Shown: piece after piece, positions 1 through 26,717 of the stretch | Position numbering within the stretch: the first letter of the stretch is position 1 | Layout of the letters: every line of letters starts with the position of its first letter | Source: Leptonemataceae bacterium | GTDB lineage: Bacteria; Spirochaetota; Leptospiria; Leptospirales; Leptonemataceae | Length of the DNA: 64,000 nt | Reading direction: 5' to 3' | Assembly (NCBI GenBank): GCA_965227295.1 | Contig: OZ245742.1 | Span: 5,088,001-5,152,000 of the forward strand | The notes under the pieces: generated by a model | The model's input: the letters and a program-made list of their open reading frames with translations, nothing else | The model's database searches: none | What the model was told of the DNA's origin: nothing | Translations under genes and position numbers: made by a program

Positions 1-3000
1 GAGAGTGGCGGGCCGTTGGCAACGCGATTCAAGATGCCGCCGATCGAAGTGCGCCACTCGACTTCGTGTTTCACCCGCGAAGCAGTCGAATAGTCCGCTC
101 GAATGGTTTTTTCCGTTCTGTCCGCGAGACCGAAAAGATCAAGGGTCCACCCGGTGATGGTTCCTTCCGACCCGACCCCGCCGAGCAGGCCCGCACCCAG
201 GCCGTAGAAACTACCGGTCGGTCCACCTTCGAATTCGTGATTGCCCGTCGTAACGTTGTAGGCGTAATCCACCCGACCACCGAACGGCCCGCGAGACGCA
301 CCAATGCCGCCGAATTGTTCGATCTCGGTCTGCCCTTCCGAATTGACATAGTAGCGCACACCGCCGGTCAGACCGCCGGCCCAGTTCGGGTTGATGTCGC
401 CGTTCATGCCGGCGAGACCGTCAACTTCAATGCCGTTCCATACTGTCTTGCTGTACAGGGGAGCGATGCGCCAGTTCTCTTCTTGATTGAGGACCAGGTC
501 CATGGGCGGCAGGAGACGATCAGGGGAATACAGATGTAGCAGATTCGAGTTCGGGGGAAGCAGCAACACCTGGCCGTCGGGCCCCTTCAAGGGTTCGCCG
601 TCCGGGCCCACGATCGTCTCATAGAGCTGTCCGTCCTTCTCCACCAGAAATATGCCTTCCTTCTCACGCAGGCGTCTGCGTCGTTCCGCCTCGGCCCTGG
701 TTCTCAGTACGTGATCGGTCTTGCGGATGGTCAGGGTGATGGGATTGCCCCTGTCTTCTTGAGGATAATTATGCACGAGCACGTCCACATCACTCACAAA
801 GTATGTGTGCGTGTCTTCGACTTCGATGTTGTACACGACATCATCGCGCCACTCCCGGCTCACACTGGCAATCTCCGCGGCGCTGCTGCCCGTGGCGCTC
901 GCCAGCATGGATCCGTCGACCGCCGAAGACGCACTGTAGGAAAGTTGCCCGGCCTGCAGTTCGCGCACTTCGGTCCAACCCCGGCCCGCGATGTAGAACG
1001 GATGATTGAACGTGGTCTCGATCACCGGGCCGCCGTCGTCGTAGGCGACCGTGTAGATGAGATTCGTTCGGTGCACGAAGGTCTCGGTCACGGTTTTGTA
1101 CGATACACGCTGCGTCTGCTCGTCCCAGCTTAAGACACGATCGCCGACACTTACGTCTTCGATCTTTTTGTACCACTTGCCGTCCAGTTGAAACGCGCCT
1201 TCGGCATTCGGAGCCGTGCGCACCAGGGTGCCCGCAACGAAACACGTGTTGTATACGAACTCACCGTTCTGCGTATCCAGCATGCCGTCGGCCGTGCTGT
1301 AGGTTCCGCCGATCCACTTCACGGCGTCGCCGATGGCTCCGGTGAACTTATCCCAGGTCGTCTCCCGGGACTCGCCGGAGTCCCCGCTCGCCAGAAGGTT
1401 CTTCGCGTAAGTCGCCGTATGCCAGAGCGACGGATCTTCCCGCAGCAACTCAGCCTGCTCCGGCGTCAGCTTGCCCTGATGTACCATGCGATCGATATAG
1501 CGATCCTGCGCAATGGCGCGGTTTTCCTTACTGTTCCGATCCCGGAGTCGATAGAACTCTTCCAGTTCTTCCTGAGTGGCCTCTTCGGGACGATTCAGGA
1601 ACTTGTCCTCCAGGAATGCCAGACGATCCGCCATGGCCTGTTCCTTTTCACTCTGCGTTTGAAAATCGAAATCCAGGCTGATGTCGTTCGAATGCCCGGA
1701 ATACTGGCCGTTCGCGTCGACGTTTACCGTGAGCGTATTGCCCGCCGAGTAGCTGTTCAGCCCGATGCCGTACTTATCTTCCTCGCCCACCGAGTTGATG
1801 AACTGCGCGCTCTTGCTGCCGTCGGAGTTCAACGTCAACCCGAGACCGGCCGTATGCGTGGCCGAAGCGCCTTCAACCTGTTTGCCGTCCCGATAGCGAT
1901 CCACCTTCGTTTTGTACGTAAGCTGCGCGCTGATGCTGTTGTTCCCGTCCGGCGAAAAGTTCGCGCTCATGCTGCCGCCGAAGCCGCTGTCCGTGTTGTA
2001 CGATGCGCTCAGCGATCCGCCGGTGTAGCCGCCGTCCGCGCCGAAATTCATGCTTGCGTTGAGACCGTAGCCGTCGTCGCTTTGCAGGCCCGCGTTGACG
2101 CTGGCGCCGGTATAGCCCTGGCCTTCTTGAAAGTTCAGACTGCCGCCGAGGCTGAGTCCCGGCACCGGCGCCCCCGCAATCGGGATGCTACCGCTGATCG
2201 AACCGCCGAAGCCGGTATCGGAATCGTACGAAAGATTCACGCTGACGCCGGCCTTCGACGTGTAATGGTTGATCACCGACGACACGCCCGAAGCCGCCGC
2301 GGCCTTCAAAATATCTTCGCTGCTGTCACCTTTTAGATAGCCCTTGTAACCCTGTTTCGCCGCCATGTAACCGGCGAACGCGGCCGTGCCCCAGCCGGTG
2401 CCCACCGCCGCGGCCCCGGCCACGGTCTCGCCGGCCTGCACGGCCATGGCGAGCTCCGGATTGTGATCGGCGTTGCGCCACACGTAGGTAGCGCCGCCGG
2501 TCGCGAAGTCTTCCGGCTTCGGCTGCGCCGCTTCCTTCGCGGCTAACTTCTTGTTTTTGTCGGCGATGGTCGTGCGCTTGAGGAAACCGGCGAGCCCCGG
2601 AATGCCCGTGGCCTCTTCCATCTTCTCGGCCATGAGTTCGTCGGTGTAGGATTGAAACGCGGCCTTCATGCTGTCGCCGCCGAAGTCGACCTTGCCGCCG
2701 GAGACCATACCGCTGATGAAACCCGCCGGCAGCCCCGTGGCCTTGACGATCCCCTGAGTTATGACGTTGTCCGTTTCGGTCTTGATGTAATCCTTGACGG
2801 CCTCCTGCGCGGTCATGCCGCCCATGATCGAAGTAAAGATGCCCGCCGGAAAACCGGTGACCTCGGCGACGTGCGCGGCGGCCTGATTCTGTACTTCCTG
2901 CGCGACGGCCTCCTGAAAAGAAATGCCGCCGGAGAACATGGCCGTTGCCAGGGACTGCAAGAGTGAGCCGAACTTCTTCTTGCGTTTCTTCGCGGCAATC

Positions 3001-5699
3001 TTATCGCCCACGTCTTTTTGGTACGCGTGGTAGTTGTCGACGGCAGTTTGATTGGCCGCCTCGAGCTGTTGCAGCACGCCTTCGAACTTCGCATCCAGCA
3101 GCGCCTGGTTTTCTTCGCGGTTCTTTTCGTGCTCGGCCAGGACCTCGTCGGTATCCCAAAAGTCGAAGATGCTGCCCGTGTCCACGAGCTTCGCGGGCGG
3201 CGGCGGTGCGATGTTCAGCGACTGATCCGCATACTCGGCCTCGTAGTCCTGTCTCGACAGACCACCGGTACCGGCGATCTGCCGCGCCTTGCCGCTGTAA
3301 ATGCTACGCGCGGCGTTGATCATCCCGTCGGCGCCGATCTCCGCCTGGAAGCCGTCGATGGAAATGTAGTCATCGCCTTCGACGCGGGATTGATTCTGCG
3401 AAAGCAAGTCAATGATGCGCTCGCTGTTCTGCCGGCGTTCTTCGATTACGCGATTGTTCAGTTCGGATTGCAAGCCCAGTTGCGCGATGCCGCGGCCGGC
3501 GTTTTCGAAACTCTTCGCCACGCCGGACAATAACGAAAAGTCCGGGACGTCGCTTTCGCGATTCAGCAGATCAACGGTTTTCTCCAGTTCCTGTCCGAAA
3601 CTGCCGCCGGCCGCCGCGGCAATTTCCAGGGCAGCGGCGTTCTTACCGGAGAGCGAGGCCGGTGCCGGCGCTTCGGCCTTGCCCTGGACCACGGCCTGCC
3701 ATTGCGTGCGACCGTCGCGGTACTCGTCCTGCATGCCGGCGTACCACTTGCTGCGTTGTTGAATGATTTCCGAGACGGCTTTGTCGTACGTGACCTGCGC
3801 CGCGGCCTGTTGGTGCGCGGCCTCCGCCTGCCACGCCGCGTAGTCCGCTTCGAAGACGGCGACCTGGGTTTCCCAGGTCTGGATCGCCGGCAGAATGTCA
3901 TCCAGCCAATGCGATACGACGGGATCCAAATCGTTAACGTACCCCTGCCAGATGTCAGCGTTATGCCGGGCGTTGGCGTCCTCCCACTGGTAGCTGAACG
4001 TGATCGTGAGCAGGCGTTCGAGAACATTGTACGTGATTTCACCTTCCGACTCGTGTTCGTTCAGACAGTCCTCACCGCCGCAGGACCAGGTGTAGTACGC
4101 GTACGTATGATCCACGATAAATGCCAGGTCGCCCATACTGGCATAGTGGGCATGACCGTGTTCCTCTCGAACCCCGGTGTTGCGGCAATAATCATCAATC
4201 GGCGCCTGTGGACTGCATCCGCCGATGCCGTAGTACGGGCCGTAGGTTTGGACCAGGCTGCCGACTCCGATGATGTCGGCGGACAGAATGCCCGTGATAT
4301 CGTGCTGCGGATTGCCGAGGGACGCCTGAAAGGAATCCGCGATGGCATTCAGCTCGGGAGCGCTCTGACCCGCGAGAAATCGAACCACCGCATTGACCGT
4401 ACCGGTCTGCTTCAGGACCGCGATGACCGCGTTCGTCGCGGCATTAATGCCGGCCGGCGTAATGCCGAGGACGTCCCGGGGAGCCGCAAGCCCTTTGTTG
4501 GGCGCTTCGGCGTCGTGCACCCCGGCCATTTCATACGGGTCCGCGGTTTTGCGCCAGTCGTCGAAAGATAACTGCAAGTAATTCGGTGTTGCGTCATCGT
4601 ACGCTTGATACGCTGCGGCCAGGTACGTGTTCAGCGCCGCATCCGTAGACATGTTCGTCGAGTAACTGTTCGTCCCCGTACTCTGATTCACCCAGTTCTG
4701 ATACTGCTGCTGCGCGTACGTGCGGCGCTGATCGAGGGCCGTGTACATCGTACTTGCGAGCACCGACAGCGGCTGGTCCTGGTCGAGGCCGTCGTTAAGT
4801 TGGTCGATGATGGCCTGCATGTCCGTCGCCGCCGCGGTGGGACTGCCGTAATCAATGGAGCAGTTGTTCTGGCCGTCGCAGTTCCACTGATAGAAGACGC
4901 CCGACGTATCCAGGTAATTCTGCATGAAGTCCGTCGCGGTGCGAATGCCTGCGCGCACCGTGTTTTCGTAGGCGTCGATCTGCGCCTGGATCGCCGCAAA
5001 CTCGGCTTCCCTCTCCGCGAGCGCGCCGTTCGCCGCGTCATACTGTCCCTGCAATTGCGCGAGCGCGGTCTGAAACTGATACATGCCGTCGGAGAACGTA
5101 GCCTGGAAATCCTGTTCCCAGGCCTGGTACTCGCGTTCGATGTCCTGGGCCGTCGTATCTTCCCGGTTCGCCTCCGCGCGCCCGGCCGCGACGCTATCCT
5201 CGGATTCCTCGGCCGCCGCGCGTTCCTTCTCTTCGCTGAGGTCCGTTAAGAACGCCACACGCTGCTGATCGATTTCCAGGTTGGCCGCGGCCTCCCACAC
5301 CGCGAACTGCGACTGCTTCTGCAATTGCAGCTCACCCCTTAAGTAATCACGATATTCAGCTACGGTGTTGAAGTGATCGGACTGCCCCACCGCGCCGACG
5401 TAGGCCTCGATCTCCGCGTCGATGCTCGCTTCCCATCCCGCGGCGAGGACGAACTTGCCCTGCTTGATGATGTACTCCCAATCCGCCTGGGAACGAGAAG
5501 CCCCGGCGTAGTTGAAGTAAGGGTCCAGTGCGCCCGATTCGTAAGAGTAGGATCCGCTGAGAGTGGGAACGGATACCGGCTGAGCGTGGACCGGAACATA
5601 GGGGCCGACGAAGGCGGCGAGCAACGCAGCAACGAGTACGGCCCCCGTCACCTTTGTTACAATTTCGTGTCTGATGCATTTCCAGCGCAACGTTCTCAT
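1..5699 (-). CDS. Giant TIGR04388-like secreted protein with Hint domain (paralog 1); 3' end outside window
   Basis: Not in ORF track (no stop in window). Manual translation from ATG at 5699 (GAGGTG RBS upstream) gives MRTLRWKCIRHEIVTKVTGAVLVAALLAAFVGPYVPVHA|QPVSVP...LDPYFNYAGASRSQADWEYIIKQGKF, closely similar to 9948..17828. Hint CFVAGTLV...LVHN at 768..1244; same frame still open at position 3. Confidence 0.9.
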   Translation of the reverse strand, partial: MRTLRWKCIRHEIVTKVTGAVLVAALLAAFVGPYVPVHAQPVSVPTLSGSYSYESGALDPYFNYAGASRSQADWEYIIKQGKFVLAAGWEASIDAEIEAYVGAVGQSDHFNTVAEYRDYLRGELQLQKQSQFAVWEAAANLEIDQQRVAFLTDLSEEKERAAAEESEDSVAAGRAEANREDTTAQDIEREYQAWEQDFQATFSDGMYQFQTALAQLQGQYDAANGALAEREAEFAAIQAQIDAYENTVRAGIRTATDFMQNYLDTSGVFYQWNCDGQNNCSIDYGSPTAAATDMQAIIDQLNDGLDQDQPLSVLASTMYTALDQRRTYAQQQYQNWVNQSTGTNSYSTNMSTDAALNTYLAAAYQAYDDATPNYLQLSFDDWRKTADPYEMAGVHDAEAPNKGLAAPRDVLGITPAGINAATNAVIAVLKQTGTVNAVVRFLAGQSAPELNAIADSFQASLGNPQHDITGILSADIIGVGSLVQTYGPYYGIGGCSPQAPIDDYCRNTGVREEHGHAHYASMGDLAFIVDHTYAYYTWSCGGEDCLNEHESEGEITYNVLERLLTITFSYQWEDANARHNADIWQGYVNDLDPVVSHWLDDILPAIQTWETQVAVFEADYAAWQAEAAHQQAAAQVTYDKAVSEIIQQRSKWYAGMQDEYRDGRTQWQAVVQGKAEAPAPASLSGKNAAALEIAAAAGGSFGQELEKTVDLLNRESDVPDFSLLSGVAKSFENAGRGIAQLGLQSELNNRVIEERRQNSERIIDLLSQNQSRVEGDDYISIDGFQAEIGADGMINAARSIYSGKARQIAGTGGLSRQDYEAEYADQSLNIAPPPPAKLVDTGSIFDFWDTDEVLAEHEKNREENQALLDAKFEGVLQQLEAANQTAVDNYHAYQKDVGDKIAAKKRKKKFGSLLQSLATAMFSGGISFQEAVAQEVQNQAAAHVAEVTGFPAGIFTSIMGGMTAQEAVKDYIKTETDNVITQGIVKATGLPAGFISGMVSGGKVDFGGDSMKAAFQSYTDELMAEKMEEATGIPGLAGFLKRTTIADKNKKLAAKEAAQPKPEDFATGGATYVWRNADHNPELAMAVQAGETVAGAAAVGTGWGTAAFAGYMAAKQGYKGYLKGDSSEDILKAAAASGVSSVINHYTSKAGVSVNLSYDSDTGFGGSISGSIPIAGAPVPGLSLGGSLNFQEGQGYTGASVNAGLQSDDGYGLNASMNFGADGGYTGGSLSASYNTDSGFGGSMSANFSPDGNNSISAQLTYKTKVDRYRDGKQVEGASATHTAGLGLTLNSDGSKSAQFINSVGEEDKYGIGLNSYSAGNTLTVNVDANGQYSGHSNDISLDFDFQTQSEKEQAMADRLAFLEDKFLNRPEEATQEELEEFYRLRDRNSKENRAIAQDRYIDRMVHQGKLTPEQAELLREDPSLWHTATYAKNLLASGDSGESRETTWDKFTGAIGDAVKWIGGTYSTADGMLDTQNGEFVYNTCFVAGTLVRTAPNAEGAFQLDGKWYKKIEDVSVGDRVLSWDEQTQRVSYKTVTETFVHRTNLIYTVAYDDGGPVIETTFNHPFYIAGRGWTEVRELQAGQLSYSASSAVDGSMLASATGSSAAEIASVSREWRDDVVYNIEVEDTHTYFVSDVDVLVHNYPQEDRGNPITLTIRKTDHVLRTRAEAERRRRLREKEGIFLVEKDGQLYETIVGPDGEPLKGPDGQVLLLPPNSNLLHLYSPDRLLPPMDLVLNQEENWRIAPLYSKTVWNGIEVDGLAGMNGDINPNWAGGLTGGVRYYVNSEGQTEIEQFGGIGASRGPFGGRVDYAYNVTTGNHEFEGGPTGSFYGLGAGLLGGVGSEGTITGWTLDLFGLADRTEKTIRADYSTASRVKHEVEWRTSIGGILNRVANGPPL
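768..1244 (-). other. Hint (intein-like/pretoxin) domain of paralog 1
   Basis: CFVAGTLVRT...KKIEDVSVGDRVLSWDE...TTFNHPFY...VYNIEVEDTHTYFVSDVDVLVHN|Y. Confidence 0.9.
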
Positions 5700-7471: not shown

Positions 7472-8353
7472 TTAGCGGCCGCGCATTTCCCGCAATCGCC
7501 CCTGCGCGTCCTGAATCTGCTGCGTCATCTTCGGCGGCACGCGGCGCAGAAACTCTTCGAGGTTCGCCACGGCGGCGCCTTTCTTCGCTAACTTCTGCTG
7601 AACGATTCCTAAGTTGAGATAGGCCTCGAAACGATCCGGCGTGAGCCGAATGACGCGCTGATAATCCTGCTCCGCGAGTCCCAGGGCCCCCGTCTGTTGA
7701 TGCACGACGCCCAGGTTGTAATGCGCGTTGGCGTAGTTCGGATCGATCTGCAACGCGCGGCGCAACGTTCGCTCCGCCGCTTCGCGATCTCCGAGCCCGA
7801 GGTACGCCGTGGCCAGGTTCGTTTCAATGTCCGCGTTCTCTTTCAAGGCCGCAGCGTTTTCAAAGTGGCGCGCCGCCTCTTCGTAACGGCCGGCGTTGTA
7901 GTAAATGAGGCCGGCGTAAGCCTGGGCGTCGAAGTAGTCTTTGTTGATGCTGATCGCTTTGAGGAACGCCGCAAGGGCCGGCTCGTAATCGCTCGCCGAG
8001 TAAAACGCGAGGCCCATATTGTAATGATACATCGCTTCGCCCGGGCGCAACTCTACGGCCTTCTGAAAAAACTCCACCGCCTTCGGGATCTCCCCCATGC
8101 GCAGATAACTCATGCCGATGTTGTTCGGATACTCCGCGTTTTCCGGGTCGACCTCGTGGGCTTCGAGAAAGTGCGGCAACGAACGCACGAAGGCGGCCTG
8201 TTGAAAATGCGCGAGGCCGGTTTCGTTTGCGGCTTCGGCCCGAGCGCGGGCCGTGTCCGAGACCGTGGGGGAGCAGGCTGCGAGGGTCGACAGCGAAACG
8301 GACAGCAGGATCGCGAGAATTTTTTTGCGGGGTGCCATGCTCATATCCTTCAA
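7472..8353 (-). CDS. TPR-repeat lipoprotein
   Basis: Lipobox-like LAAC; repeated TPR motifs (YNMGLAFY, AHYNLGVV, AYLNLGIV); overlaps the upstream MORN gene stop. Confidence 0.85.
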   Translation of the reverse strand: MKDMSMAPRKKILAILLSVSLSTLAACSPTVSDTARARAEAANETGLAHFQQAAFVRSLPHFLEAHEVDPENAEYPNNIGMSYLRMGEIPKAVEFFQKAVELRPGEAMYHYNMGLAFYSASDYEPALAAFLKAISINKDYFDAQAYAGLIYYNAGRYEEAARHFENAAALKENADIETNLATAYLGLGDREAAERTLRRALQIDPNYANAHYNLGVVHQQTGALGLAEQDYQRVIRLTPDRFEAYLNLGIVQQKLAKKGAAVANLEEFLRRVPPKMTQQIQDAQGRLREMRGR

Positions 8354-9345
8354 GGAGTCGAGCGTTCTTCGCCCTCGATCAGCGAACCGTTTTGAAACGT
8401 TCCCGACTTTTGCGTTCCGTCCTTGAACGTCAACGTGCCGCTGCCGTGGAACTCGCCGTTCTGGAATTCGCCTTCGTAGCGCAGATAACTTACGAATTCG
8501 GACGGATATAGCATGATGCCGGAACCGGTCTGTTCTCCTTCGACGAACGTTCCGACGTACTTGCGGCCGTCGCTGTAGATGTAGGTACCCTCACCGTGCG
8601 GAATACCGTCTGCCAGGCGGCCGATGTAAACGTCCCCGCGATTAAACTGCTCGTCGCCGTACGCTAAGACGCCGTCATACATCGCACCGTCGCGCCATTC
8701 GCCGACGAAGCGTTGCCCGTCGCGCCAGACCATCATTCCACGACCGTGCATCTGGTTGTTCTTGAATTCGCCGGAGTACCGGAACTCGAACGGATCTTCG
8801 GATCCTTCCAGTGCACGTTCGTAAAAGCCGTAGCCCTCGAATCGATTTTCGCGCATCTGTCCCAGGTAATAACGCCCGTCGCCCGGATGCCGGAACTCGC
8901 CGTAGCCGTGGCGCTGACTGCCCTGCCATTCGCCGATGTAGTACTGGCCGGTATTCGCGCCGCCGAATTCGTAGCGCCCGAAGCCCTCGGACTGGTTGTC
9001 CTGGAACTGGCCGGTGTACGTACTCTGCGTGGCCGCCTGGCTTTGTTCGCCGTAGCCGTCCTTGTAACCGCCGGAAAACTCGCCGGTGTAGATGTCCTTC
9101 TCGGCGTCGATGTATCGGCCGTAGTACATCTCGCCGTCCACGAAGGTGCCGTGGAACTTCTGCCCGCCGCGGAAATCCATGTCGCCCACGCCGTTTTCGC
9201 AGTTGCCGGCGGTGCAGCGGCCGGGGGCCGGGGAGCAGTGGGAGACGGCGAGCAGCGTGCAGAAGGCACGGCAAAGCAGGCCCAGCCCGTCCCGATTCAC
9301 CCGACGATTAAGCAAGATGGACCCGCCGATCAAACCGTTGCTCAT
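8350..9345 (-). CDS. MORN-repeat protein (exported or lipoprotein)
   Basis: Many YxGxF/WxxGxxHGxG repeats; N-terminal CTAGNCENGVG. True start may be GTG at 9300. Confidence 0.85.
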   Translation of the reverse strand: MSNGLIGGSILLNRRVNRDGLGLLCRAFCTLLAVSHCSPAPGRCTAGNCENGVGDMDFRGGQKFHGTFVDGEMYYGRYIDAEKDIYTGEFSGGYKDGYGEQSQAATQSTYTGQFQDNQSEGFGRYEFGGANTGQYYIGEWQGSQRHGYGEFRHPGDGRYYLGQMRENRFEGYGFYERALEGSEDPFEFRYSGEFKNNQMHGRGMMVWRDGQRFVGEWRDGAMYDGVLAYGDEQFNRGDVYIGRLADGIPHGEGTYIYSDGRKYVGTFVEGEQTGSGIMLYPSEFVSYLRYEGEFQNGEFHGSGTLTFKDGTQKSGTFQNGSLIEGEERSTP

Positions 9346-9940
9346 TCAGATTATCGTTGTCAAAGATAGGCAATCCGCCTGCCCCGTATTCCGGCGTGAT
9401 GTGTAATTCCAGATTCGGCGCCACCGCAAACATGGTCCCGGTGTCCAAGCGCGGACATATGCCAATCACACGCGATGGGCCACCCACAGCACGATCCTTT
9501 AAAAGAACCTCAAATCCGACAAAGGTAGACCCGATAATTCCTTGAACGATAGCGTCCGCATATTCCGGACTGGATACGGCAGAAACACTGACCCAGTTCC
9601 AATCGTCAAAGTCCCCACCGAGAGTCGTCGGATCATCGGGAGGTGGCGGGCCGATACTTCCCATCAACTGCTCGTTGATCTTATCCCCCGCGATGCAAAA
9701 ATAGGAGCCGTCGCCTCCCAACTGAAACGAAAGGAAACCGACGCCGCGGGCAATAAGAGCCCCGGCAGGAAAGCCGTAGCCGTCTTCCTGGTATTTCTTT
9801 ACAATTTCCGCAGGCACGGCAGGGCCGACCGTGCGTATATGTCTCACAACGTCCACGATGGTCCTGCCGACGAGGCTTCCCGGGGAAGGGCGCAACTCAC
9901 TCAGGGGAGTCCATGTAAATTTCGACGGTTGAACACTCAT
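9308..9940 (-). CDS. Putative immunity protein for paralog 2
   Basis: ATG at 9940, 7 nt after the giant-gene stop; distantly alignable by eye to 30971..31624. Function inferred from position. Confidence 0.6.
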   Translation of the reverse strand: MSVQPSKFTWTPLSELRPSPGSLVGRTIVDVVRHIRTVGPAVPAEIVKKYQEDGYGFPAGALIARGVGFLSFQLGGDGSYFCIAGDKINEQLMGSIGPPPPDDPTTLGGDFDDWNWVSVSAVSSPEYADAIVQGIIGSTFVGFEVLLKDRAVGGPSRVIGICPRLDTGTMFAVAPNLELHITPEYGAGGLPIFDNDNLNEQRFDRRVHLA

Positions 9941-9947
9941 ACGCCCG

Positions 9948-12900
9948 CTACTTGCTCGACGGAATTGCATTAATGAGACGCTGGATTTGCTCCAATGCGT
10001 CGCTGTTTTTGACACCCTCGTCTACCGTCGAAGGATCGATGAGTGTCACGCTTCCGGTCTTTACGTCGACCATAATCTGCGGATCCCCCACGCTGATCGG
10101 TGGGATACCGTTATCAGGATCTCCGCGCAGAAACTTGTGCAATTCCTTCAGTTTTTTCCGGGTCTTGTCGCGCATGGCGGGCGGCGCATCCGGAGCTTCC
10201 TTCTTGATCTTCGAGAAATCGGTCTTACAGTTGTGTCCCTTCAGCTTACGCATGAGCACACCGTAACCCTCCTCTCCTCTGCCGATGTTTTCCATTCGAC
10301 GAACTTCACTCGCGTCGACAATATCAACCTTCGCCCCCCGGGCCGCCTTGAGATTCTGGAGTTCCTTGAGTCTCCTCACCATCCCACGTAAGGCGTCCGG
10401 GTTGCGCGGATCCAGCGGTCGGGCGAGGACGACATCGTTTATGGGCTTGCCCGTCTTACGATCGAACAGGTCGTAGATCTGTTTTTCGTCGCCTTTCGCA
10501 CCATTGCGTGCCTCGCGTTTAATATCATGGGTCTCAAGTTTATCCCACGTTTTTTGGAAGCGGCGAAGGTACGACTTTAGACCGCATGCGAGACAGTCAT
10601 CCGCATCGTTGTCATTGTGCACCAACCACGCCGCGTCACCCGCGAAGTAGTTATGATCGCCCTCGACCTCGATGTTGAAGATCGGCTCGCTGCGTTTTAG
10701 TTGCCGCGTTTCAATACTCGTAATCGCCGCGAGTTCACCGTCCACCGGACGCAGGCGATCGCCGACCTTCAGGTCTTTCGCCGCGACCCACTCCCCGCGC
10801 TCCTCGATCCAGAACGGGTGGTTGTCGGTAGCGGTGATGGAGTCCTGGCCGACACGAATGTCGTACCAAACGATAGTGATGTCCCGGAAAAGCTGCGTAA
10901 CCTTGCGTTCGGTCGCTTTACCGGTCGCGGTATCGAAGGCGAGCACTGAATCACCGATGGCCAGATCTTCAATGTTTACCCGACCATCCGGCGTGAGTAC
11001 CGGCGTTCCGGAGGGCAGACATTTGGTACAGACGGAACATGCTGCCAGGCCGATCTTATCGAGTTTGTCTTTGCTCTTGCGTGACGCCCCGGCGACCAAC
11101 TTATCCAGGGCCTTCTTGCTCTGCTTCCCGATCATGTCGCCGACTTTCGTGCCGCTTGCCAGGTCAAAACCCGCAAGAGCGATGCCCAGGTAGTCGGGCT
11201 TACGAACGGCAACGATAAGGTCCGCCGCGGCGATAAAACGACCGAGCCCCGGCACAAAGCTGGCCACGGTTCCCATCGCCGGGTCTCCGCCGGCCTCGGA
11301 AATCGCCTCGGCAAACTTAAAAAACTCCTCTATGTGAAAGTCGCCGGTAACCAGAGCAACGGCCGCCTCTTTCACATTCGAGAGCTTATCACCCGCCTCA
11401 TTGATGAGACCCAGGGCGATCTCTCTGGCAGTGTCGAGGTACTGATCAAGCAGGCCCTGTTCCCGATCTTCGTCATTCGTATGTTCCAGGCCGGGCTGTT
11501 CTTTTTTCATGGCGGCTTCGAGTTCCGCCGCGTAACGTTGTTTGATTATCTCCTTCGCCGCCTTGCGCCGCATCAGCGCGGCCTGGGCGCGTTTCTCCTG
11601 GGCGTCGCGGTACTCCTTGCCGGACTCATACTCCGTCAGCCACTCGGACACCCACTCGTCCGGCGTCTTCGCCTCACCGTTCGCAGTGACCCACTTCGTA
11701 GGTTTACCGGGAACGACCTTTAGAATGCTCTCGGGCGATTGAGACGAGGGTCGACCGCTCAGTTCCACTCGCAGTGCGTTCAGCGCACGATTGTAGACGG
11801 CGTCGTTGTAGTCGCGCTTACCCGCATCGAGGCCTTCTTCCAGGGCCTTCGCGGAACCACCGTTGAGATTCAGCTCCGGATCCGGGATCCCATCCAGGCA
11901 CTGGACCTGCGATTCGCCTGTAAGATTAATGCATTTGTCGATCGCCGCTTTACGTTCGCTGCGGCTGTCGCCGGTGAGCTTTGCCTGCTCGGATACGAAC
12001 TGCTGACCGACCGGAGAATTCGCCATCCAGTAACCGACGAACTCTTCTTTGGTCAGCTTGAGCATGCCGCCCGTGTCGCCTCCCCCCAGGTCGATCGGCT
12101 TGATATTCTCGCAGACGATGTAATCGCCTTCCGCGTAGACCTTCCTGTTGTCGCTGTTCAGAGCCGATCCCGTCTTTTCCCAGGGAATCTGCTTCTCTAC
12201 ATTCGATAGTTCCCCATCGAACACAACGTTGTACATCGCCTCGGTAAACGAACCGTCGCGATTTACGTAAGCCGGATCCGCGATGGGAAAGGTAACGCGT
12301 TTCTCGCTCGTGCGATCCCATCCCGAGGCTACTCCCGGGGGATCCCAGATCGAAGCCGTGCCTCCCATATCTCGCGAACGCGCGCTATCGAGGTTGCCCG
12401 TGAGCAGACTGAGCGTATCCTGTTCGCCCATAACGGAATTCAGTAACGCCGGATCGAGTTCGATGCCGGTCAGGTCACCGATTTCCTCTGCAATAGAGGC
12501 GAGTAATTCTTCCTCGTTGATATCGTAGGTAAAACCGTCTTCGTCCAGGCCGGCGGTAATGCCGTGTCCGGACAGCCCCGCACCGAAGCCGTTCTCGGTA
12601 TCGTAACCGCCGCTCAGATCGAAGCCGTTCACGCTGCCGCTGGTACCGATCGAGGCGTTGCCGTTGGAATCGGCGCCGGCGTTAACATTCACACCGTCGA
12701 TGTTACCGCTGACGTCACCGGAGACGGTGCCGTTGCCGTCCACACCCGCGTTGACATTGACGCCGTCGATATTCCCGCTGACGCCGCCGGACACGTTGCC
12801 GTTCGAATCCACGCCGGCATTCACGTCGATCGCATTGCCGTCCGGATCTTCTCCCGAAATGCTCGTGGAAACATTGCCATTGGAATCGCCGCTGACACTC

Positions 12901-15900
12901 ACATCGGTGCCGTCGATGGAACCGGACACCCCGCCGCTGATCGTTCCATCGGGTCCGATGCCGGTCGTCAGCCCAACGCCGTCGATATGCGTCGTAACAC
13001 CGCCGGTGACGTTGCCGTTCTCGTCGACACCCGCATTAACGTCCGTGCCGTTGATGTTACCCGCGACGCCGCCGGTGACGTTGCCGTTCTCGTCCACGCC
13101 CGCGTTCACATCCGTTCCGTTGATATTACCTGACACACCACCGGTGACGTTGCCGTTCTCGTCCACGCCCGCGTTCACATCCGTGCCGTTAATATTACCC
13201 GCGACGCCGCCGGTGACGTTGCCGTCCTCGTCCACGCCCGCGTTCACATCCGTGCCGTTGATGTTACCCGCGACGCCGCCGGTGACGTTGCCGTTCTCGT
13301 CCACGCCCGCATTCACATCCGTTCCGTTGATATTACCTGACACACCACCGGTGACGTTGCCGTTCTCGTCCACGCCCGCATTGACGTCCGTTCCGTTGAT
13401 GTTACCTGACACACCACCGGTGACGTTGCCGTTCTCGTCCACGCCCGCATTAACGTCCGTTCCGTTGATGTTACCCGAGACATTGCCGGTTACGTTGCCG
13501 TTCTCGTCGACACCCGCGTTCACATCCGTGCCGTTGAGATTGCCCGCGACGCCGCCCGTTACGTTGCCGTCGCCGTCGACGTCCGCGTTGACATCCACAT
13601 CACCGATCGTACCCGCAACACCGCCCGTTACGTTCCCATTCTCATCGATACCCAGGTTCAAATCCAGGTCGTCGATGCTGCCCGTGACGCCGCCCGTTAC
13701 GTTGCCGTTTTCGTCGCTGCCCGCATTTACATCGACGTCGTCGATGTTGCCGGCCAGAAATCCCGTCCAGCCGTCGGGACCGAGGGCAAAACCGCCGTCC
13801 AGGTCCCCATTTGAATAACCGCCGGAAGCAGTGAGCCCCGTGGAGGGGTTGTATGCCAGATCCGCGAAGCCGTCTTCGCCGTCCCAGTCCACCGATGCGG
13901 AGAATCCGGTCGCAGGATCGTACAGGACACCGCCGGACAACGTGTTCTCGTCGTCGACGAGCGAGGCTTGAAGAGTCGCGGCTTCGAGATTGCCGGATGC
14001 ATCGAAGTACAGACCGCCCGTCGCGCCCAGACCGTTCCCGGCATCATCGAAGTCCTCATAGCCCGCCACGACCGCGGCGCCCGTGAATCCGGACCGATCA
14101 AACTCCATGGCTCCGGCGGCGGAAAAACCGTCATCGTTCGAGTAACCGCCATCGAGTCTTCCGCCGGTAACTCCTGTTCGATCAAAGTTAAGGCCCGCCG
14201 TCAGTCCCAGGCCGTCCTCCCCGTAGCCGACCGTAAGGCTCCCGCCGGTAACACCCTGGCCTTCTTGAAACGAAAGACTGCCGCCGACCGTGAAGCCGGT
14301 GTCGCCGAGCGGCAGCGCCCCGCCGATGGAACCGCCGAAGCCGTTCTCCGGATCGTACGTCAGGCTGACGCTACCGCCGACCTGCTGGGCAAAAAGATTT
14401 GCGTAGGCTCCCACACCGGAGGCCGCGGCCTGCTTTAAGATCGTATCCGTATCTTCGCCGGCAAGATAACCTTTATAGGCACCCTTCGCCGCCATGTATC
14501 CGGCAAACGCCGCCGAGCCCCAACCGCTGCCGACGGCCGCGGCGCCGGCCACTTTTTCACCGGCCTGCACGGCCGTTCCCAGGGCCGGATTGTGATCGGC
14601 GTTTCGCCAGACGTAGGTCGTACCGAGCGTCGCCACGTCCTCGGGCTTCGGCTGTGCCGCTTCCTGCGCGGCCTTCTTTTTGTTTTTGTCGGCGATGGTC
14701 GTGCGCTTCAGGAAACCGGCGAGGCCGGGAATGCCCGTCGCCTCTTCCAGTTTTTCCGCGACGAGTTCATCGGTGTAGGCCTGGAAGGCGGCCGTCATGT
14801 TTTCGCCGCTGAAGTCGACACCGCCGCCCGAAACGAGCCCGCTCACGAATCCCGCCGGCAGACCCGTCGCATCGACGATCGCCTGGGCGATGAGATTATC
14901 CGTTTCCGTTTCCACGTAATCACGGACGGCGTCCTGCGCCGACATGCCGCCCATCATCGACGTGAAGATGCCGGCCGGGAACCCGGTGACCTCGGCGACA
15001 TGCGCGGCCACCTGATTCTGCATATGATTCGTGACGGCCTGTTGCAGGGAAATGCCGCCGGAGAACATCGCCGTGGCGATGGACTGCAACTGCGACATGA
15101 AGCCTTTCTTCTTTTTCTTGCGTTTAATCTGAGCCTGGATGTCGTTTTGAAAATTCTGAAAGTTGTCGACGGCAGTCTGATTGGCGGCCTGGAGAATGCT
15201 CTGCACACCCTTGAACTTCGCTTCGAGTAATTCCTGATTCTCCGCGACGTTGTCCTGATACTCATCGATGACCGCGGATCGATCCCACTGCTCGAAGACG
15301 TTGCCGGTATCCACCATCTTCACCGGCGGCGGCGGAGCGATGTTCAAAGCCTGCTCGGTGAATTCGGCGTCGTAGTCATCCGCGGAGAGACCGGATCCGC
15401 GGTTATGAACGGCGCGACCGCTGTGAATTTGTCGGGTGGCGCTGATCGAGCCGTCGGCGTTGATGGTAGTTTCGAAACCCTCCACGCCGATGCCGCTGAT
15501 GTCCTGGCCCTGCGCCACCGCGGCGATCCGATTCGTCGCCTGTTCGCGCTGCTCGTGTATGCGACGGTTCAGCTCCGATGCCAGGGTCAGCTGGGCGACA
15601 CCGCGCGCGCTCTGATTAAAACTCTGCGCGACCCCGTTCAACAGTGAGAAGTCGGGGGCGTTCCCGCCGCGTTCCAGCAGCGCATCCGTCCCCGCCACGC
15701 TGCGTTCGAAGACATCGCCTGCCGCGGCCACCACGGCCAGCGCCCGCTTCGTCGCGTTTTCATCGAGGGGGGCCGGCGCCGCGGCCTTGCCTGCGACCAC
15801 CGCGCGCCACTGATTGCGGCCGTTGCGATACTCGGTGAGCATGCCCGCGTACCAACGATTGCGCTCCCCGACGATCTGCCCCACCGCGGCTTCGTAGGCC

Positions 15901-17828
15901 GCCTTCGCGCTGGCACGTTGTTGATCCGCTTCGGCCTGCCAGGCCGCGTAGTCCGCCTGAAACGTGGCGACCTGGGCCTCCCAGTTTTGAATCGCGGGAA
16001 GGATGTCGTCGCGCCAGTGGGCCACGACGGGATCCAAATCATTAACATAACCCTGCCAGATGTTAGCGTTGTGCCGGGCGTTCGCATCCTCCCAGGTGTA
16101 GTTCACCATGGTATAGTAGGTGATCGAGGGTAAATGATACGTGTAAGTCCAGTTGGTTGAGACCACGTTCCCGGGACTACCGACGCAACGGCCTATCGAA
16201 CGCGGATTCGTGCTGATTGTACCGTCGCACCAGCTCTGGCTGCCGTTCCTGGATATGATGACCCGGAAGGTATTGTCCCCGGCCTGGCCCAGGTGGGGAT
16301 GAACGGGGCCGGAATTGTACACGGCGTCCCCGCCCCCCACTGCGCCGGAGTAGCGCTGACCGCAGGAAACACCGCCCGCGTTCGTCGCCGGTCCGGAAGT
16401 ACAATTGCCGCGAGACTCCCAGGGAACCGACAGCGTACTGTGAGTCACCTCGACGTACGAATTGTACAGCTCCGCAAACTGCACGGACACGATGTCGTGC
16501 TGAGGATTGCCGAGCGCGGCCTGGTAAGCGTCGGCGTAACTCATCACCGCGGTGGAATTGCCGCTACGGTGCGCCAGGATCGCGGCGACATGTGGCTGTG
16601 CTTTAATCGCCGCGATGGCCGCGTTCGTATGGGCTTCCATCTGGCTGACGTACGAAAAACCAGGCGAGATATACGTGTTCGCCGGATCTTCCATATAGTT
16701 CAGCGTATCCTGATAACTATATGGATTGACCGGCAGCGTTCCCATAAGCGAGGCGTAGTTCAGTCCGATCGACCAGGTATTCGTCCCCGTGCTCTGGGCC
16801 AGCCAGTTGTTGTACTCCGTCTGCGCAAACGTGCGCTGCGCATCCAGCGCGGTGTACATCGTGTTCGCAAGTACGGACAGCGGTTGATCATTCGCCAGAC
16901 CGTCGTTCAAATCATCGATGAGGGTCTGCATCGTGGACGCCGCCGCGGTGGGACTGCCGTAATCAATGGAGCAGTTGTTTTCGCTATCGCAGTTCCAATC
17001 GTAAAACACACCCGACGTGTTCAGATAGTTTTGCATGAACGCCGTCGCCGTGCTGATGCCCTGGCGCACGGTTTCTTCGTAGGCGTCGATGCGTGCCTGG
17101 GTCGCAAGGAACTCGGCTTCTTTTTCCGCCAGCGCGCCGTTCGCCGTATCGTACTGCGCCTGGAGTTTGGCCAGGGCCGTTTGAAATTGGTAGAGGCCGT
17201 CCGCGAAATTTTTCTGAAAGTCCCGTTCCCACTCCTGGTAGTCACGTTCGATGTCTTCGGTGGTCGACTCTTCCTGAGCCGCCTCCGCGCGACCGGCCGA
17301 CACGCTGTCGTCGGATTCCTCGGCCGCCGCGCGTTCTTTCTCCTCCGCAAGTTCCGAGAGAAAGGCCACACGCTGTTGATCGATTTCCAGATTCGCCGCG
17401 GATTCCCAGGCCGCGAACTGCGACTGCTTCTGCAACAGCAACTCGCCCCTTAAGTACTCCCGATATTCAGCTACGGTATTGAAGTGATCGGACTGAGCAA
17501 CGGCATTCACGTAACCTTCGATTTCGGCGTCGATGCTCGTTTCCCAGGTGGCCGCGAGCACGTACTTGCCCTGCTCAACGATGTACTCCCAGTCCGCCTG
17601 GGAGCGCGAGGACTCCGCGTAATTGAAGTAGGGATCAAGATCCCCGGAGCCGTAGGTGGGCGTGCTGCCCAGCGCCGGCACCGGAACGGGCTGGGCCTGA
17701 AGCGAGACATAAGGCTGCGTGAATAGAAAGAGGGACGTGAGGACCAAAGCCGCGCTCACCAGGCGCGTCGGCAGACTGTATCGCCTCCGCGATCGAGCTC
17801 GATGGTAAACGGCGTACGATTCGTGCAT
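9948..17828 (-). CDS. Giant TIGR04388-like polymorphic toxin (paralog 2, 2626 aa): signal peptide, coiled coils, beta-repeat stalk, Hint, kinase-like C-terminus
   Basis: Signal peptide ending SLQA|QPVPVP; Hint CLPSGTPVLTPDG...LVHN at 10614..11021; 221-aa C-terminal domain. Confidence 0.85.
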   Translation of the reverse strand: MHESYAVYHRARSRRRYSLPTRLVSAALVLTSLFLFTQPYVSLQAQPVPVPALGSTPTYGSGDLDPYFNYAESSRSQADWEYIVEQGKYVLAATWETSIDAEIEGYVNAVAQSDHFNTVAEYREYLRGELLLQKQSQFAAWESAANLEIDQQRVAFLSELAEEKERAAAEESDDSVSAGRAEAAQEESTTEDIERDYQEWERDFQKNFADGLYQFQTALAKLQAQYDTANGALAEKEAEFLATQARIDAYEETVRQGISTATAFMQNYLNTSGVFYDWNCDSENNCSIDYGSPTAAASTMQTLIDDLNDGLANDQPLSVLANTMYTALDAQRTFAQTEYNNWLAQSTGTNTWSIGLNYASLMGTLPVNPYSYQDTLNYMEDPANTYISPGFSYVSQMEAHTNAAIAAIKAQPHVAAILAHRSGNSTAVMSYADAYQAALGNPQHDIVSVQFAELYNSYVEVTHSTLSVPWESRGNCTSGPATNAGGVSCGQRYSGAVGGGDAVYNSGPVHPHLGQAGDNTFRVIISRNGSQSWCDGTISTNPRSIGRCVGSPGNVVSTNWTYTYHLPSITYYTMVNYTWEDANARHNANIWQGYVNDLDPVVAHWRDDILPAIQNWEAQVATFQADYAAWQAEADQQRASAKAAYEAAVGQIVGERNRWYAGMLTEYRNGRNQWRAVVAGKAAAPAPLDENATKRALAVVAAAGDVFERSVAGTDALLERGGNAPDFSLLNGVAQSFNQSARGVAQLTLASELNRRIHEQREQATNRIAAVAQGQDISGIGVEGFETTINADGSISATRQIHSGRAVHNRGSGLSADDYDAEFTEQALNIAPPPPVKMVDTGNVFEQWDRSAVIDEYQDNVAENQELLEAKFKGVQSILQAANQTAVDNFQNFQNDIQAQIKRKKKKKGFMSQLQSIATAMFSGGISLQQAVTNHMQNQVAAHVAEVTGFPAGIFTSMMGGMSAQDAVRDYVETETDNLIAQAIVDATGLPAGFVSGLVSGGGVDFSGENMTAAFQAYTDELVAEKLEEATGIPGLAGFLKRTTIADKNKKKAAQEAAQPKPEDVATLGTTYVWRNADHNPALGTAVQAGEKVAGAAAVGSGWGSAAFAGYMAAKGAYKGYLAGEDTDTILKQAAASGVGAYANLFAQQVGGSVSLTYDPENGFGGSIGGALPLGDTGFTVGGSLSFQEGQGVTGGSLTVGYGEDGLGLTAGLNFDRTGVTGGRLDGGYSNDDGFSAAGAMEFDRSGFTGAAVVAGYEDFDDAGNGLGATGGLYFDASGNLEAATLQASLVDDENTLSGGVLYDPATGFSASVDWDGEDGFADLAYNPSTGLTASGGYSNGDLDGGFALGPDGWTGFLAGNIDDVDVNAGSDENGNVTGGVTGSIDDLDLNLGIDENGNVTGGVAGTIGDVDVNADVDGDGNVTGGVAGNLNGTDVNAGVDENGNVTGNVSGNINGTDVNAGVDENGNVTGGVSGNINGTDVNAGVDENGNVTGGVSGNINGTDVNAGVDENGNVTGGVAGNINGTDVNAGVDEDGNVTGGVAGNINGTDVNAGVDENGNVTGGVSGNINGTDVNAGVDENGNVTGGVAGNINGTDVNAGVDENGNVTGGVTTHIDGVGLTTGIGPDGTISGGVSGSIDGTDVSVSGDSNGNVSTSISGEDPDGNAIDVNAGVDSNGNVSGGVSGNIDGVNVNAGVDGNGTVSGDVSGNIDGVNVNAGADSNGNASIGTSGSVNGFDLSGGYDTENGFGAGLSGHGITAGLDEDGFTYDINEEELLASIAEEIGDLTGIELDPALLNSVMGEQDTLSLLTGNLDSARSRDMGGTASIWDPPGVASGWDRTSEKRVTFPIADPAYVNRDGSFTEAMYNVVFDGELSNVEKQIPWEKTGSALNSDNRKVYAEGDYIVCENIKPIDLGGGDTGGMLKLTKEEFVGYWMANSPVGQQFVSEQAKLTGDSRSERKAAIDKCINLTGESQVQCLDGIPDPELNLNGGSAKALEEGLDAGKRDYNDAVYNRALNALRVELSGRPSSQSPESILKVVPGKPTKWVTANGEAKTPDEWVSEWLTEYESGKEYRDAQEKRAQAALMRRKAAKEIIKQRYAAELEAAMKKEQPGLEHTNDEDREQGLLDQYLDTAREIALGLINEAGDKLSNVKEAAVALVTGDFHIEEFFKFAEAISEAGGDPAMGTVASFVPGLGRFIAAADLIVAVRKPDYLGIALAGFDLASGTKVGDMIGKQSKKALDKLVAGASRKSKDKLDKIGLAACSVCTKCLPSGTPVLTPDGRVNIEDLAIGDSVLAFDTATGKATERKVTQLFRDITIVWYDIRVGQDSITATDNHPFWIEERGEWVAAKDLKVGDRLRPVDGELAAITSIETRQLKRSEPIFNIEVEGDHNYFAGDAAWLVHNDNDADDCLACGLKSYLRRFQKTWDKLETHDIKREARNGAKGDEKQIYDLFDRKTGKPINDVVLARPLDPRNPDALRGMVRRLKELQNLKAARGAKVDIVDASEVRRMENIGRGEEGYGVLMRKLKGHNCKTDFSKIKKEAPDAPPAMRDKTRKKLKELHKFLRGDPDNGIPPISVGDPQIMVDVKTGSVTLIDPSTVDEGVKNSDALEQIQRLINAIPSSK
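10614..11021 (-). other. Hint domain of paralog 2
   Basis: CLPSGTPV...IEDLAIGDSV...TATDNHPFW...FNIEVEGDHNYFAG...LVHN|D. Confidence 0.9.
13003..13761. repeat. Intragenic 69-bp (23-aa) tandem repeat, 11 units plus degenerate flanking units
   Basis: ccggtgacgttgccgttctcgtcc recurs at 69-bp spacing (e.g. 13072, 13141, 13279, 13348, 13417); protein unit GNINGTDVNAGVDENGNVTGGVS/A. Confidence 0.95.
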
Positions 17829-20900: not shown

Positions 20901-21035
20901 TCCCGGGAAGGCCGTGGACGGCATGAGCCCCACCGGCACCGAAAAAAAAGCCACGAAGCCCAGCAAAGCCGGACCGCTGACGAACATGATCGTCGTGATG
21001 GGATGCGCGAGACAGAAACGGCTGAGGGCGTTCAC
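17988..21035 (-). CDS. AcrB/AcrD/AcrF-family RND permease, degenerate transmembrane domain
   Basis: RND porter motifs (IEEQITIPMEEAV, AYFESLRRPF) present, but TM4 and TM10 regions lack the usual charged residues. Confidence 0.85.
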   Translation of the reverse strand: MNALSRFCLAHPITTIMFVSGPALLGFVAFFSVPVGLMPSTAFPGLTVEVNYGGVGPEKIEEQITIPMEEAVSSVGGIEELRSVSEEGKARIDIEFTRGLDVNRKALEVRERIDPVAATFPREVQPPTVLRYDPEKRPVFIVALESEALDLFQQREFADRRVKKAFERVDGVSEIIVAGGQVREVLVSCDAGLLQSRGISMQEILRDLQSNNFDVALGRMHTNGGRYSVYGRGRFQSLEEIRNLILETTEDNRPILLRDVAEVKYSYRDQDTASRWNGEERISIYVHKGSEANLLVLSDELRRAMQEVHRDDVDFRMIYDQADTIRSAVGNLLIAGAVGLLFAALLLYFAFFSLRISLVVLGALPVSFLISSFAIFLVGFEYNLMTISGFILSAGVSLTLLTVTVLAIRRFGPTAAGERVGQELIAGVLVLGAIFVPVLFSGEELKILYGGFAVAVAVPAAVTLLLCFTIVPVLLGRREFRRYQFAPFRKGADTLRRSLWKWKQRFDGAAYRAYPNRIRGWFIALQRTGWRGVAAYFVILVLGAVVFSFSKQQLGSSFEKNRVNSFIEFPSGTAFGPTNGTSKKVEEKLLKVEGVKEISSRVEAGRSTLRLTLEDGQDASPAYIETLKEAAGNNEPAFVFFSTEADAGALREITIHVLGEDLETLDKLTKNMANLAKTYEGVNEVVLRYKSPRPELRLWIDRVKAQRVGLTAADFGQNVRFAIQGGVATKFIEENREIDVRIRYDEKFRRSLEQLADYFLKAGEGRFVPMLELVRQEEGTVPVKIYRKNKKRTYSFSLQLGDAGYETLTPRLDELQAAELPANYRIEFGRELRIALESRQRFYRVIALSVLLVYMILAAYFESLRRPFLLLVPLPLPIIAAATALFIFRIPLSITILIGFLILAAWVALQAMLLRTPELAAMQQDRRAMAKLFLAACATAVFYLPFTVVTGDGGEFLRGISISVIAGLAASTLATPLLVAVTARIPVSELLRLRMIQAWSMEMFQWIRRRMGKLR

Positions 21036-24000: not shown

Positions 24001-24202
24001 GGGGTTTCGTCACCAGGTTTTCGATTTCTTCCGGGGCCGCGTTTTCGTAAGCGGTGACGACGGTAATGCGCGGCAACTCCAGGTTCGGCAGGAGGTTCAC
24101 TTCCAGATCCGAAAGCGCGAGCACGCCCAGGAGGACGACGCCCAGATAGAACATGGCGGTGGCGACCGGGCGGCCGATGGCGAGACGCTGAAGACTGCGC
24201 AT
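21032..24202 (-). CDS. AcrB/AcrD/AcrF-family RND permease
   Basis: RPVATAM, LEVNLLPNLELP, IENLVTKPLAE, SLGGMALGIGMLFD, AAQFES, LRPVIM, FQAPMAIAVISGL. Confidence 0.92.
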   Translation of the reverse strand: MRSLQRLAIGRPVATAMFYLGVVLLGVLALSDLEVNLLPNLELPRITVVTAYENAAPEEIENLVTKPLAEAASSVGGLDKVTSESLEGVSFVTLQFSWGTNVDFAVMEVREKLDLVRGVLPEDAGRSIISRFDPSADPFMEVVFFANSLPNDKDLRHFLESEVKVYLDRVDGVAQVEFSGGYKKEIQVEVDAPLMNGYGLSLNEIGGAMAASNLNSPAGSITVGDKDVLIRTLGEFQNIDDIRQAVVGKNEQGVPVRLGDLADVRDGYEERTGLALYNGRECVVVSLRKEAGKNTVQVAADARKEIEVVRETFGDEVDLAVVYDESRFVRQSIWNIAQALIIGGLLAFLILVLILRNLRSPVILLTVLPISVLATFLLMYTQGISLNLMSLGGMALGIGMLFDAGNVVLSSIERYSREGLARKEAALRGAGDVSGSISAAVFTTVTVFLPIVFLQSVVGVVFAEMALTITYSLLVSLAVSLTLIPMLSSLRWPAFFQKDLSKYPVVRTAAAFEDRLERRYERRLAGILDNPRGFIFTVLALLTVAWLIFPFVQREFLPRVDTGEFSVEVENVRGASLESTRSLAEEVEAALREHPDVEHAITFAGYDPDQLLSRRGGDVGTHRAQVRVVLRRNRSGTAREVADEIRRGMKLRDDVEVSFGVSGDVLSEILSPDAKAVMLEVAGDDLTMLTEVGGRVREHLGEIEGVVDVQSSMQDRSREYHVRYDDLRLAVANMSREYLSRYLRTAIDGSVVTRLRVGDEEIDIRVQLREEDRNSLEGLGELRVKSEVGENVPISQIIKVKNEEGYTSILRNGPTRINRITADLAEGADRNAVYGSIADYVDGLRLPEGYSVSFGGERENLGRAFQELVFAFLLAAVLVYMILAAQFESIRYPVYMLLAIPLIVIGVFPALYLTSSSLNVSSFTGVILLIGIVVDNAALFYEYVHILREEGKELREAIQESGKIVLRPVIMNNSTTLLGLLPVALQLGEGTEFQAPMAIAVISGLIASVFLSLFVIPTVFYYVMRSRSGPTFGSAPKQRPFATTTGGVPEVEAEAL

Positions 24203-24205
24203 CGA

Positions 24206-26614: not shown

Positions 26615-26717
26615 GAGGACAATGGATTGCACAGGGAAACGTGATGGCAAGCGATGTTCTGCCCGGAACGACGCGGATTCGGTTGACGGGAATAAGCAGC
26701 CGTTGTCTGCTCCGCTC

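Follow-up and report, generated by a model that had tools for sequence, protein, structure and literature searches.

Is the last domain of a giant polymorphic toxin from a Leptonemataceae bacterium a minimal protein kinase? The domain lies in a window of 64,000 nucleotides, by which we mean the whole stretch of DNA analysed (GenBank assembly GCA_965227295.1, contig OZ245742.1, positions 5,088,001 to 5,152,000). A first-pass annotation, made from the letters of this window, had described positions 9948..10613 as a toxin released by a Hint domain and resembling a minimal HopBF1-type kinase with a WNK-like shifted lysine. We found the feature at these positions, on the minus strand; the annotation had named no strand, and the plus-strand translation of 9948-10613 is interrupted by stops. 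The feature forms the C-terminal tip, hereafter CT1, of a 2626-residue protein, P0001. Our analysis indicates that P0001 is probably a giant, presumably secreted polymorphic toxin of the spirochaete-type TIGR04388 family, with this region as its exchangeable toxin domain at the C-terminus and a likely antidote gene beside it.

The Hint domain and its C-terminal tip

The following features of the locus carry this conclusion.

9948..17828, minus strand: open reading frame (ORF) of P0001, a TIGR04388-family polymorphic toxin of 2626 amino acids, with its stop codon at 9948-9950
16710..17723, minus strand: conserved N-terminal region, P0001 residues 36-373, the best TIGR04388 stretch
12652..13748, minus strand: tandem 69-bp (23-amino-acid) repeats in P0001, with a unit of about NINGTDVNAGVDENGNVTGGVSG
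10614..11021, minus strand: PT-HINT domain of self-cleaving type, P0001 residues 2270-2405, recognised by PF07591 and by its landmarks
9951..10613, minus strand: CT1, the 221-amino-acid post-Hint domain, P0001 residues 2406-2626
9308..9940, minus strand: candidate immunity gene of 210 amino acids, its ATG at 9940, 7 nucleotides after the toxin's TAG

P0001 matched the NCBIfam family TIGR04388 ('Lepto_longest') with an E value of 3.5e-81, the best stretch covering residues 36-373, and its N-terminal region was 72% and 42% identical to those of two paralogues in the window. What looks like a hydrophobic leader, ending ...VSLQA|QPVPVP, precedes this region. The repeat array has a period of 69, with up to 10.9 copies at 81-88% matches, and encodes about eleven 23-residue units; it is absent from both window paralogues.

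The Hint domain was identified by a match to PF07591 over residues 2277-2405 (E 2.8e-14) and by three landmarks, namely Cys1 in CLPSGT (2270), TDNH (2334-2337) and the terminal LVHN (2402-2405). The N- and C-terminal intein models were sub-threshold or at threshold on P0001. LVHN ends exactly at 10614; the next codon begins with base 10613 and encodes Asp2406 at position +1. Because the +1 residue is Asp, splicing of P0001 is not expected, while cleavage is allowed by established intein chemistry. The Hint domain would be expected to cut P0001 at Asn2405|Asp2406 through cyclisation of the Asn. Such a cut would free CT1 as a basic protein of about 25 kDa, which may then poison neighbouring cells. 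The proposal that the tip is Hint-released therefore holds up well, given that CT1 stands directly behind a PT-HINT domain with its landmarks and that tails differ in the family while the Hint domain is conserved.

We examined this last point in a set of relatives. A search with P0001 residues 1-1100 (8000 candidates scored, E<=1e-5) returned 11 proteins including the query, and addition of P0003 from the window gave 12 proteins and 66 pairs. Over the 140 residues before the terminal HN, the median Smith-Waterman score was 232.5 (range 50-474). Over the tails after HN, it was 37 (range 22-56), on a par with the shuffled controls. At E<=0.01, Pfam recognised no family in any of these 12 tails (P0001, P0003 and P0004-P0013). 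Because these 12 relatives retain the Hint domain while their tails are unrelated, we regard CT1 as a polymorphic-toxin tip. Within the 64-kb window itself, there are three giant TIGR04388/PT-HINT toxin paralogues, each with a different tail; those other than P0001 are as follows.

3..5699, minus strand: P0002, a PT-HINT paralogue cut by the window edge, whose full form, P0004, has 2081 amino acids
31621..38799, minus strand: P0003, a PT-HINT paralogue

Two further members of the family, P0009 and P0013, lie on the same 5.94-Mb contig as P0001.

The composition of the two genes at the end of the locus fits a toxin and antidote pair. CT1 is strongly basic, with an isoelectric point (pI) of 9.33, 25 Lys and 19 Arg (44) in 221 residues, and only 3 His, whereas the downstream 210-residue ORF is acidic (pI 4.79). 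The GC content of CT1 is 0.541, and its unbroken frame shows a coding-type distribution of GC over the codon positions. At third codon positions, the GC content (GC3) was 0.63 in CT1 and 0.58 in the downstream ORF, against 0.71-0.78 in the Hint domain, the P0001 N-terminus and the MORN, TPR and AcrB genes nearby. A GC3 below that of the surroundings, as in CT1 and the ORF behind it, is typical of cassettes that have been exchanged, and supports this assignment. The acidic 210-residue protein would bind CT1 and so protect the producer. It belonged to no Pfam, NCBIfam, PADLOC or PHROGs family, its best PDB match had an E value of 0.83, and its AlphaFold2 model, with a predicted local distance difference test (pLDDT) score of 31.8, was unusable.

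CT1 itself had no detectable relatives. A phmmer search of 1,835,955,588 representative proteins at E<=0.001 returned only P0001, as did a word-indexed search of 733 candidates of 1444-4596 amino acids, and the P0001 cluster is a singleton (one protein on one contig, among 5.8 billion clusters). Two scans of species genomes matched 144 pattern stretches and, with aligned N-termini, 28 stretches, and confirmed 0 in each case. With tblastn, plasmids gave nothing at E<=10 and phages gave a single record (E 0.9, 27% of the query), which we took as noise. CT1 matched nothing in PADLOC and only three PHROGs entries over short stretches (E 0.16-0.43), again taken as noise. Two points weigh against the reading of the region as a toxin cassette: CT1 and the downstream ORF are without a homologue in any collection searched, so that comparison lends no support to toxicity or immunity, and the candidate immunity gene is only an ORF whose immunity role we infer.

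Kinase-like strings, profiles and models

The kinase proposal was based on five short strings in kinase order. All of them are present in the order given, in CT1 numbering: GAKGDEKQIY (38-47) as Gly loop and beta2, VVLARP (61-66) at the beta3 position, YGVLMRKLKG (117-126) as hinge, VGDPQIMVD (175-183) with the catalytic-loop Asp, and GSVTLIDP (187-194) with an Asp equivalent to that of DFG. The annotation had also remarked that the beta3 position carries no Lys, and this was borne out, as the proposed site reads VVLARP and CT1 has no VAIK-type Lys. The spacing of the proposed elements would, by PKA numbering, resemble that of classical kinases. Three stretches bear on the proposal.

10032..10091, minus strand: CT1 175-194, VGDPQIMVDVKTGSVTLIDP, with the proposed catalytic-loop Asp177 and metal-binding Asp193
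10116..10457, minus strand: CT1 53-166, the sub-threshold APH stretch (E 0.19 and 0.15)
10266..10283, minus strand: GRGEEG, the sole exact GxGxxG in CT1 (111-116), found in a motif check and not used in the first-pass annotation

We compared the strings with shuffled versions of CT1. The full ordered pattern occurred in 0 of 20000 shuffles; this pattern was derived from CT1 itself, so the count is no test. A relaxed C-terminal pattern, GD..hD..hD, written after seeing the sequence, occurred in 632 of 20000. A presence of kinase-like strings beyond chance is not shown, and none of the strings fits a canonical kinase consensus.

A kinship between CT1 and the tail of P0003 was also considered and rejected. 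By eye, the two share three motifs (G.K..K.I[YF]D, G[KH]P..V[VI]LA and VD.KTG...L.D), and the similarity was at chance level, with a local z of 0.34 (180/500 shuffles) and an end-free global z of 1.28 (59/500). Because this three-motif match fell to the shuffle test, kinase-like strings, too, may be easily seen by eye in charged tails.

Profile searches gave one result in the direction of a kinase. At E<=10, a Pfam scan of CT1 returned only two families, both sub-threshold: Rpp20 and APH (PF01636), the latter comprising aminoglycoside phosphotransferases and belonging to the kinase-like clan. APH aligned CT1 53-166 with profile positions 17-116 of 239 (E 0.19, 11.9 bits), and the match was slightly stronger when the N-terminal 29 residues were removed (E 0.15, 12.3 bits). 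On the APH consensus, VVLARP would correspond to the Lys strand, residues 70-92 to helix C, YGVLMRKLKG to the hinge and KELHKF to the helix before the catalytic loop, which is the layout that the annotation had proposed. No other kinase-type Pfam family matched CT1 at this threshold.

Structure prediction did not decide the matter. AlphaFold2, run on a one-sequence alignment, gave CT1 a pLDDT of 40.6 and a predicted TM score (pTM) of 0.28, with no residue above 70; because CT1 has no homologue to align, the fold is unusable for judging a kinase. Foldseek matched this poor model to 154 PDB entries at E<=10 and to 0 at E<=0.001, with TM scores of at most 0.26 and TAL-effector repeats at the top. 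The AlphaFold2 and Foldseek result speaks neither for nor against a kinase fold. In the low-confidence model, residues 72-92 and 145-162 are helical and 179-183/188-192 form a hairpin, followed by LIDP at 191-194. With the same low confidence, these helices and this hairpin would sit at the places that a kinase reading assigns to helix C, to helix E and to the strands leading up to the metal-binding Asp.

Many of the results count against a kinase. Neither [VIL]A[VILM]K nor three hydrophobic residues followed by K occurs anywhere in CT1. It also lacks [HY][RG]D-x4-N, its sole D-x4-N being DEGVKN at 198, after Asp193, and it lacks D[FLWY]G. Asp177 and Asp193 are 16 residues apart, without an Asn at +5, and just 28 residues remain beyond Asp193. 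The APH score is about half the curated cut-off of 23.2 bits, and the match was gone when CT1 30-135 was scanned alone. At E<=10, no kinase model in Pfam reached the proposed catalytic-loop and DFG segment. Rpp20, an unrelated eukaryotic family, scored better than APH on CT1 (E 0.023), and because so implausible a family outscores APH, weak scores may be inflated for the charged CT1. The AlphaFold2 model, at low confidence, draws helices where beta2, beta4 and beta5 were proposed. Finally, GRGEEG does not lie at the proposed Gly loop; it adjoins the proposed hinge, where the annotation's map puts strands beta4-beta5. We noted separately that GRGEEG fits neither the proposed kinase map nor a classical Rossmann strand-loop-helix.

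On its sequence, CT1 cannot be shown to belong to the kinase-like superfamily, since significant similarity, a beta3 Lys and a catalytic-loop D-x4-N were all missing. In our judgement, a weak match deserves more weight than its E value alone would give it when the superfamily is very large, and the absent Lys and Asn weigh heavily against the assignment. A kinase-like fold, with an ATP-using phosphotransferase of atypical active site as the likeliest single activity, is a doubtful reading of CT1 and more likely wrong than right. The candidate active-site residues would then be Lys44 or Arg65, Glu84, Asp177, Gln179 or Asp183, and Asp193.

Possible activities of CT1 and known systems

In its strict form, the kinase reading makes CT1 a minimal HopBF1-like enzyme with a WNK-like Lys44 in the Gly-loop strand, Asp177 as base and Asp193 as metal ligand, which would kill by phosphorylating a protein of the target cell. 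That the quoted strings are real and collinear speaks in its favour, as does the sub-threshold APH match to CT1 53-166 (E 0.15-0.19). However, no solved kinase was among the PDB chain matches at E<=10, no other kinase-type Pfam family appeared at E<=10, and the catalytic segment was unmatched. CT1 moreover lacks a VAIK-type Lys, D-x4-N and DFG, has no Asn at the usual place between Asp177 and Asp193, and carries its sole GxGxxG (111-116) where the proposed lobe map has no use for it. Kinase tips are also rare in polymorphic toxins (PMC3482391), and no title listed by our literature search described an antibacterial kinase-fold effector. We consider this strict form unlikely. About as likely as a kinase in the broader sense, and thus equally open to doubt, is a toxin that targets nucleic acids, a DNase or RNase from a family not yet described, perhaps in two parts, namely an N-terminal segment for entry or linkage and a small module for catalysis. 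The basic character of CT1 (pI 9.33) agrees with such a toxin. The highest tail-to-tail score of CT1 was between its residues 39-114 (10272-10499, minus strand) and residues 2272-2339 in the last domain of P0010 (Smith-Waterman score 52, z 3.0, 4/400 shuffles). A D...QxK string in that domain recalls, we presume, restriction-endonuclease-fold toxins. Nevertheless, because it is the best of 11 comparisons, this similarity is not significant after correction; phmmer with filters off, against the last 260-400 residues of P0002-P0013, likewise gave at best 4.1 bits (P0010), and the P0010 tail is itself without a Pfam family. CT1 has only 3 His; HNH-type and HExxH motifs are absent from it, as is a (D/E)xK at the aligned position, and it matched no nuclease family in Pfam, NCBIfam, PADLOC or PHROGs. 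The motif check found no Walker A in CT1 either, and two Rx4-6H strings were taken as chance at that frequency. Nucleases are nonetheless the commonest polymorphic-toxin tips, as is generally held and as the toxin table of PMC3482391 indicates.

CT1 could also be another kind of effector, such as a membrane- or envelope-acting protein or a non-catalytic binder, or a decaying, inactive tail in which the kinase-like strings are coincidental. Its singleton status (5.8 billion clusters; 1.84 billion representatives) is compatible with this, unusual activities are plausible in a family in which 0 of 12 tails have a Pfam match, and the chance-level three-motif match of the P0003 tail illustrates how readily such motifs appear. 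Decay, however, is at odds with an intact frame and coding-type GC by codon position, and with the tightly coupled acidic ORF that follows, as expected of an active toxin; nor does CT1 contain hydrophobic segments that would suggest a pore former. We regard this group of explanations as improbable.

As a system, the P0001 locus is, judged by its sequence, a PT-HINT polymorphic toxin. In the account of PT-HINT toxins by Zhang, de Souza, Anantharaman, Iyer and Aravind (2012, PMC3482391), such a toxin is, like P0001, a long secreted repeat protein with a Hint domain before a variable tip and a small gene after it, and spirochaetes are among the lineages listed for several PT-HINT-type systems. 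P0001 differs in that its carrier is TIGR04388 and that CT1 matches no described toxin domain present in Pfam. The toxin table of PMC3482391 also contains a kinase-type tip, the Tox-Peptide Kinase, which is a precedent for a kinase as a toxin tip. As described there, it is lantibiotic-synthetase-like, with motifs DxH, YKP[KR] and DxHxEN, is found in Firmicutes and is associated with a PVC-type metallopeptidase, not with Hint; CT1 contains none of these motifs.

The resemblance to HopBF1 found no backing in the sequence. When every chain sequence of the PDB was searched with CT1 by phmmer, a single unrelated 56-residue chain (E 1.4) and no kinase passed E<=10, the presence of a HopBF1 entry in the searched copy being unconfirmed. 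HopBF1 is described as a minimal atypical kinase that, as a type III effector, targets eukaryotic HSP90 (PMC9950578; 10.1101/2025.03.20.644192), and a crystal structure of the Ewingella homologue exists (PMC9950578). HopBF1 and CT1 are alike in a size of about 200 residues, and the kinase proposal for CT1 shares with HopBF1 the notion of a kinase reduced to its core and sent into another cell. Pathogens of plants and animals deploy HopBF1 as a type III effector, whereas CT1 is a Hint-type toxin tip with an immunity-like neighbour.

The APH family (PF01636) offers the weak collinear match to CT1 53-166 described above, which would run from the N-lobe to the first C-lobe helix. Unlike APH, however, CT1 lacks a matched catalytic HGD-x4-N and following Asp region, lacks the Lys and the Asn, and is about 100 residues shorter than the usual proteins of the APH profile. 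WNK kinases carry their catalytic Lys in strand beta2 and otherwise have canonical HRD, Asn and DFG-type motifs. Of the latter, none is present in CT1, which shares with WNK the concept alone, a Lys close to a Gly-rich turn (GAKGDEK) where beta3 offers none. From its residues, CT1 thus has no support as a HopBF1- or WNK-type kinase, though it may possibly work like a minimal kinase. We attach little likelihood to the fullest version of the proposal, in which CT1 would found a new family of Hint-released interbacterial kinase-fold toxins of about 190 residues, without a beta3 Lys or catalytic-loop Asn, with a catalytic loop about 3 residues shorter (GDPQ-IMVD) and neutralised by an acidic immunity protein; its core would be smaller and odder than that of HopBF1.

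Neighbouring genes and meaning for the family

Downstream of the toxin and its candidate immunity gene, the same-strand run continues with two genes, and the P0003 locus has a comparable end.

8350..9345, minus strand: MORN-repeat protein gene (PF02493, E 6.5e-31), next downstream of the immunity candidate
7472..8353, minus strand: TPR-repeat protein gene, the last gene of the same-strand run
31624-32370, minus strand: P0003 tail of 248 amino acids, in which LVHN is followed by Cys at +1 and the GC content (0.473) is the lowest seen
30971-31624, minus strand: ORF after the P0003 tail, 217 amino acids, in no family

The MORN ORF at 8350..9345 overlaps the end of the immunity candidate, and its real start may be later. 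A terminator-like hairpin at 7457-7445 follows the TPR gene; it is weak, and the terminator count was not above that of shuffles. MORN-repeat genes occur at 8350-9345, 25883-26719, 29045-29929 and 29979-31202 (all minus strand, E 1e-16 to 1e-36); such genes follow each of the two complete toxin loci in the same orientation and may have an accessory or immunity role or encode lipoproteins. The P0003 tail matched nothing in Pfam or the PDB and had no relatives among 3273 candidates of 437-2000 amino acids.

Directly upstream of the P0001 gene is an RND efflux operon (17988-25708, minus strand) with two AcrB-type pumps and a membrane-fusion/OEP protein. Elsewhere, the window contains a haem-uptake cluster (50962-59678) of a TonB-dependent receptor, HmuY, ExbB, an ankyrin-repeat protein, haem oxygenase and an MFS transporter, and a gene for a DUF1577 protein (40364-41848, plus strand; PF07614, E 2.9e-52) in DNA of about 59% GC. 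DUF1577 would be a family linked with Leptospira, and its presence beside TIGR04388 suggests, despite this GC content, a lineage related to Leptospira.

Overall, CT1 appears to be a new singleton toxin domain within a known kind of system. If the kinase reading were true, it would be a rare kinase-type tip of a polymorphic toxin and would test how far a kinase core can shrink; if CT1 is not a kinase, it would still be a new toxin domain. Our literature search found no paper naming the TIGR04388 carrier family, and 0 of 12 tails are known to Pfam, which suggests that toxins and their immunity proteins in this family may be a resource not yet exploited.

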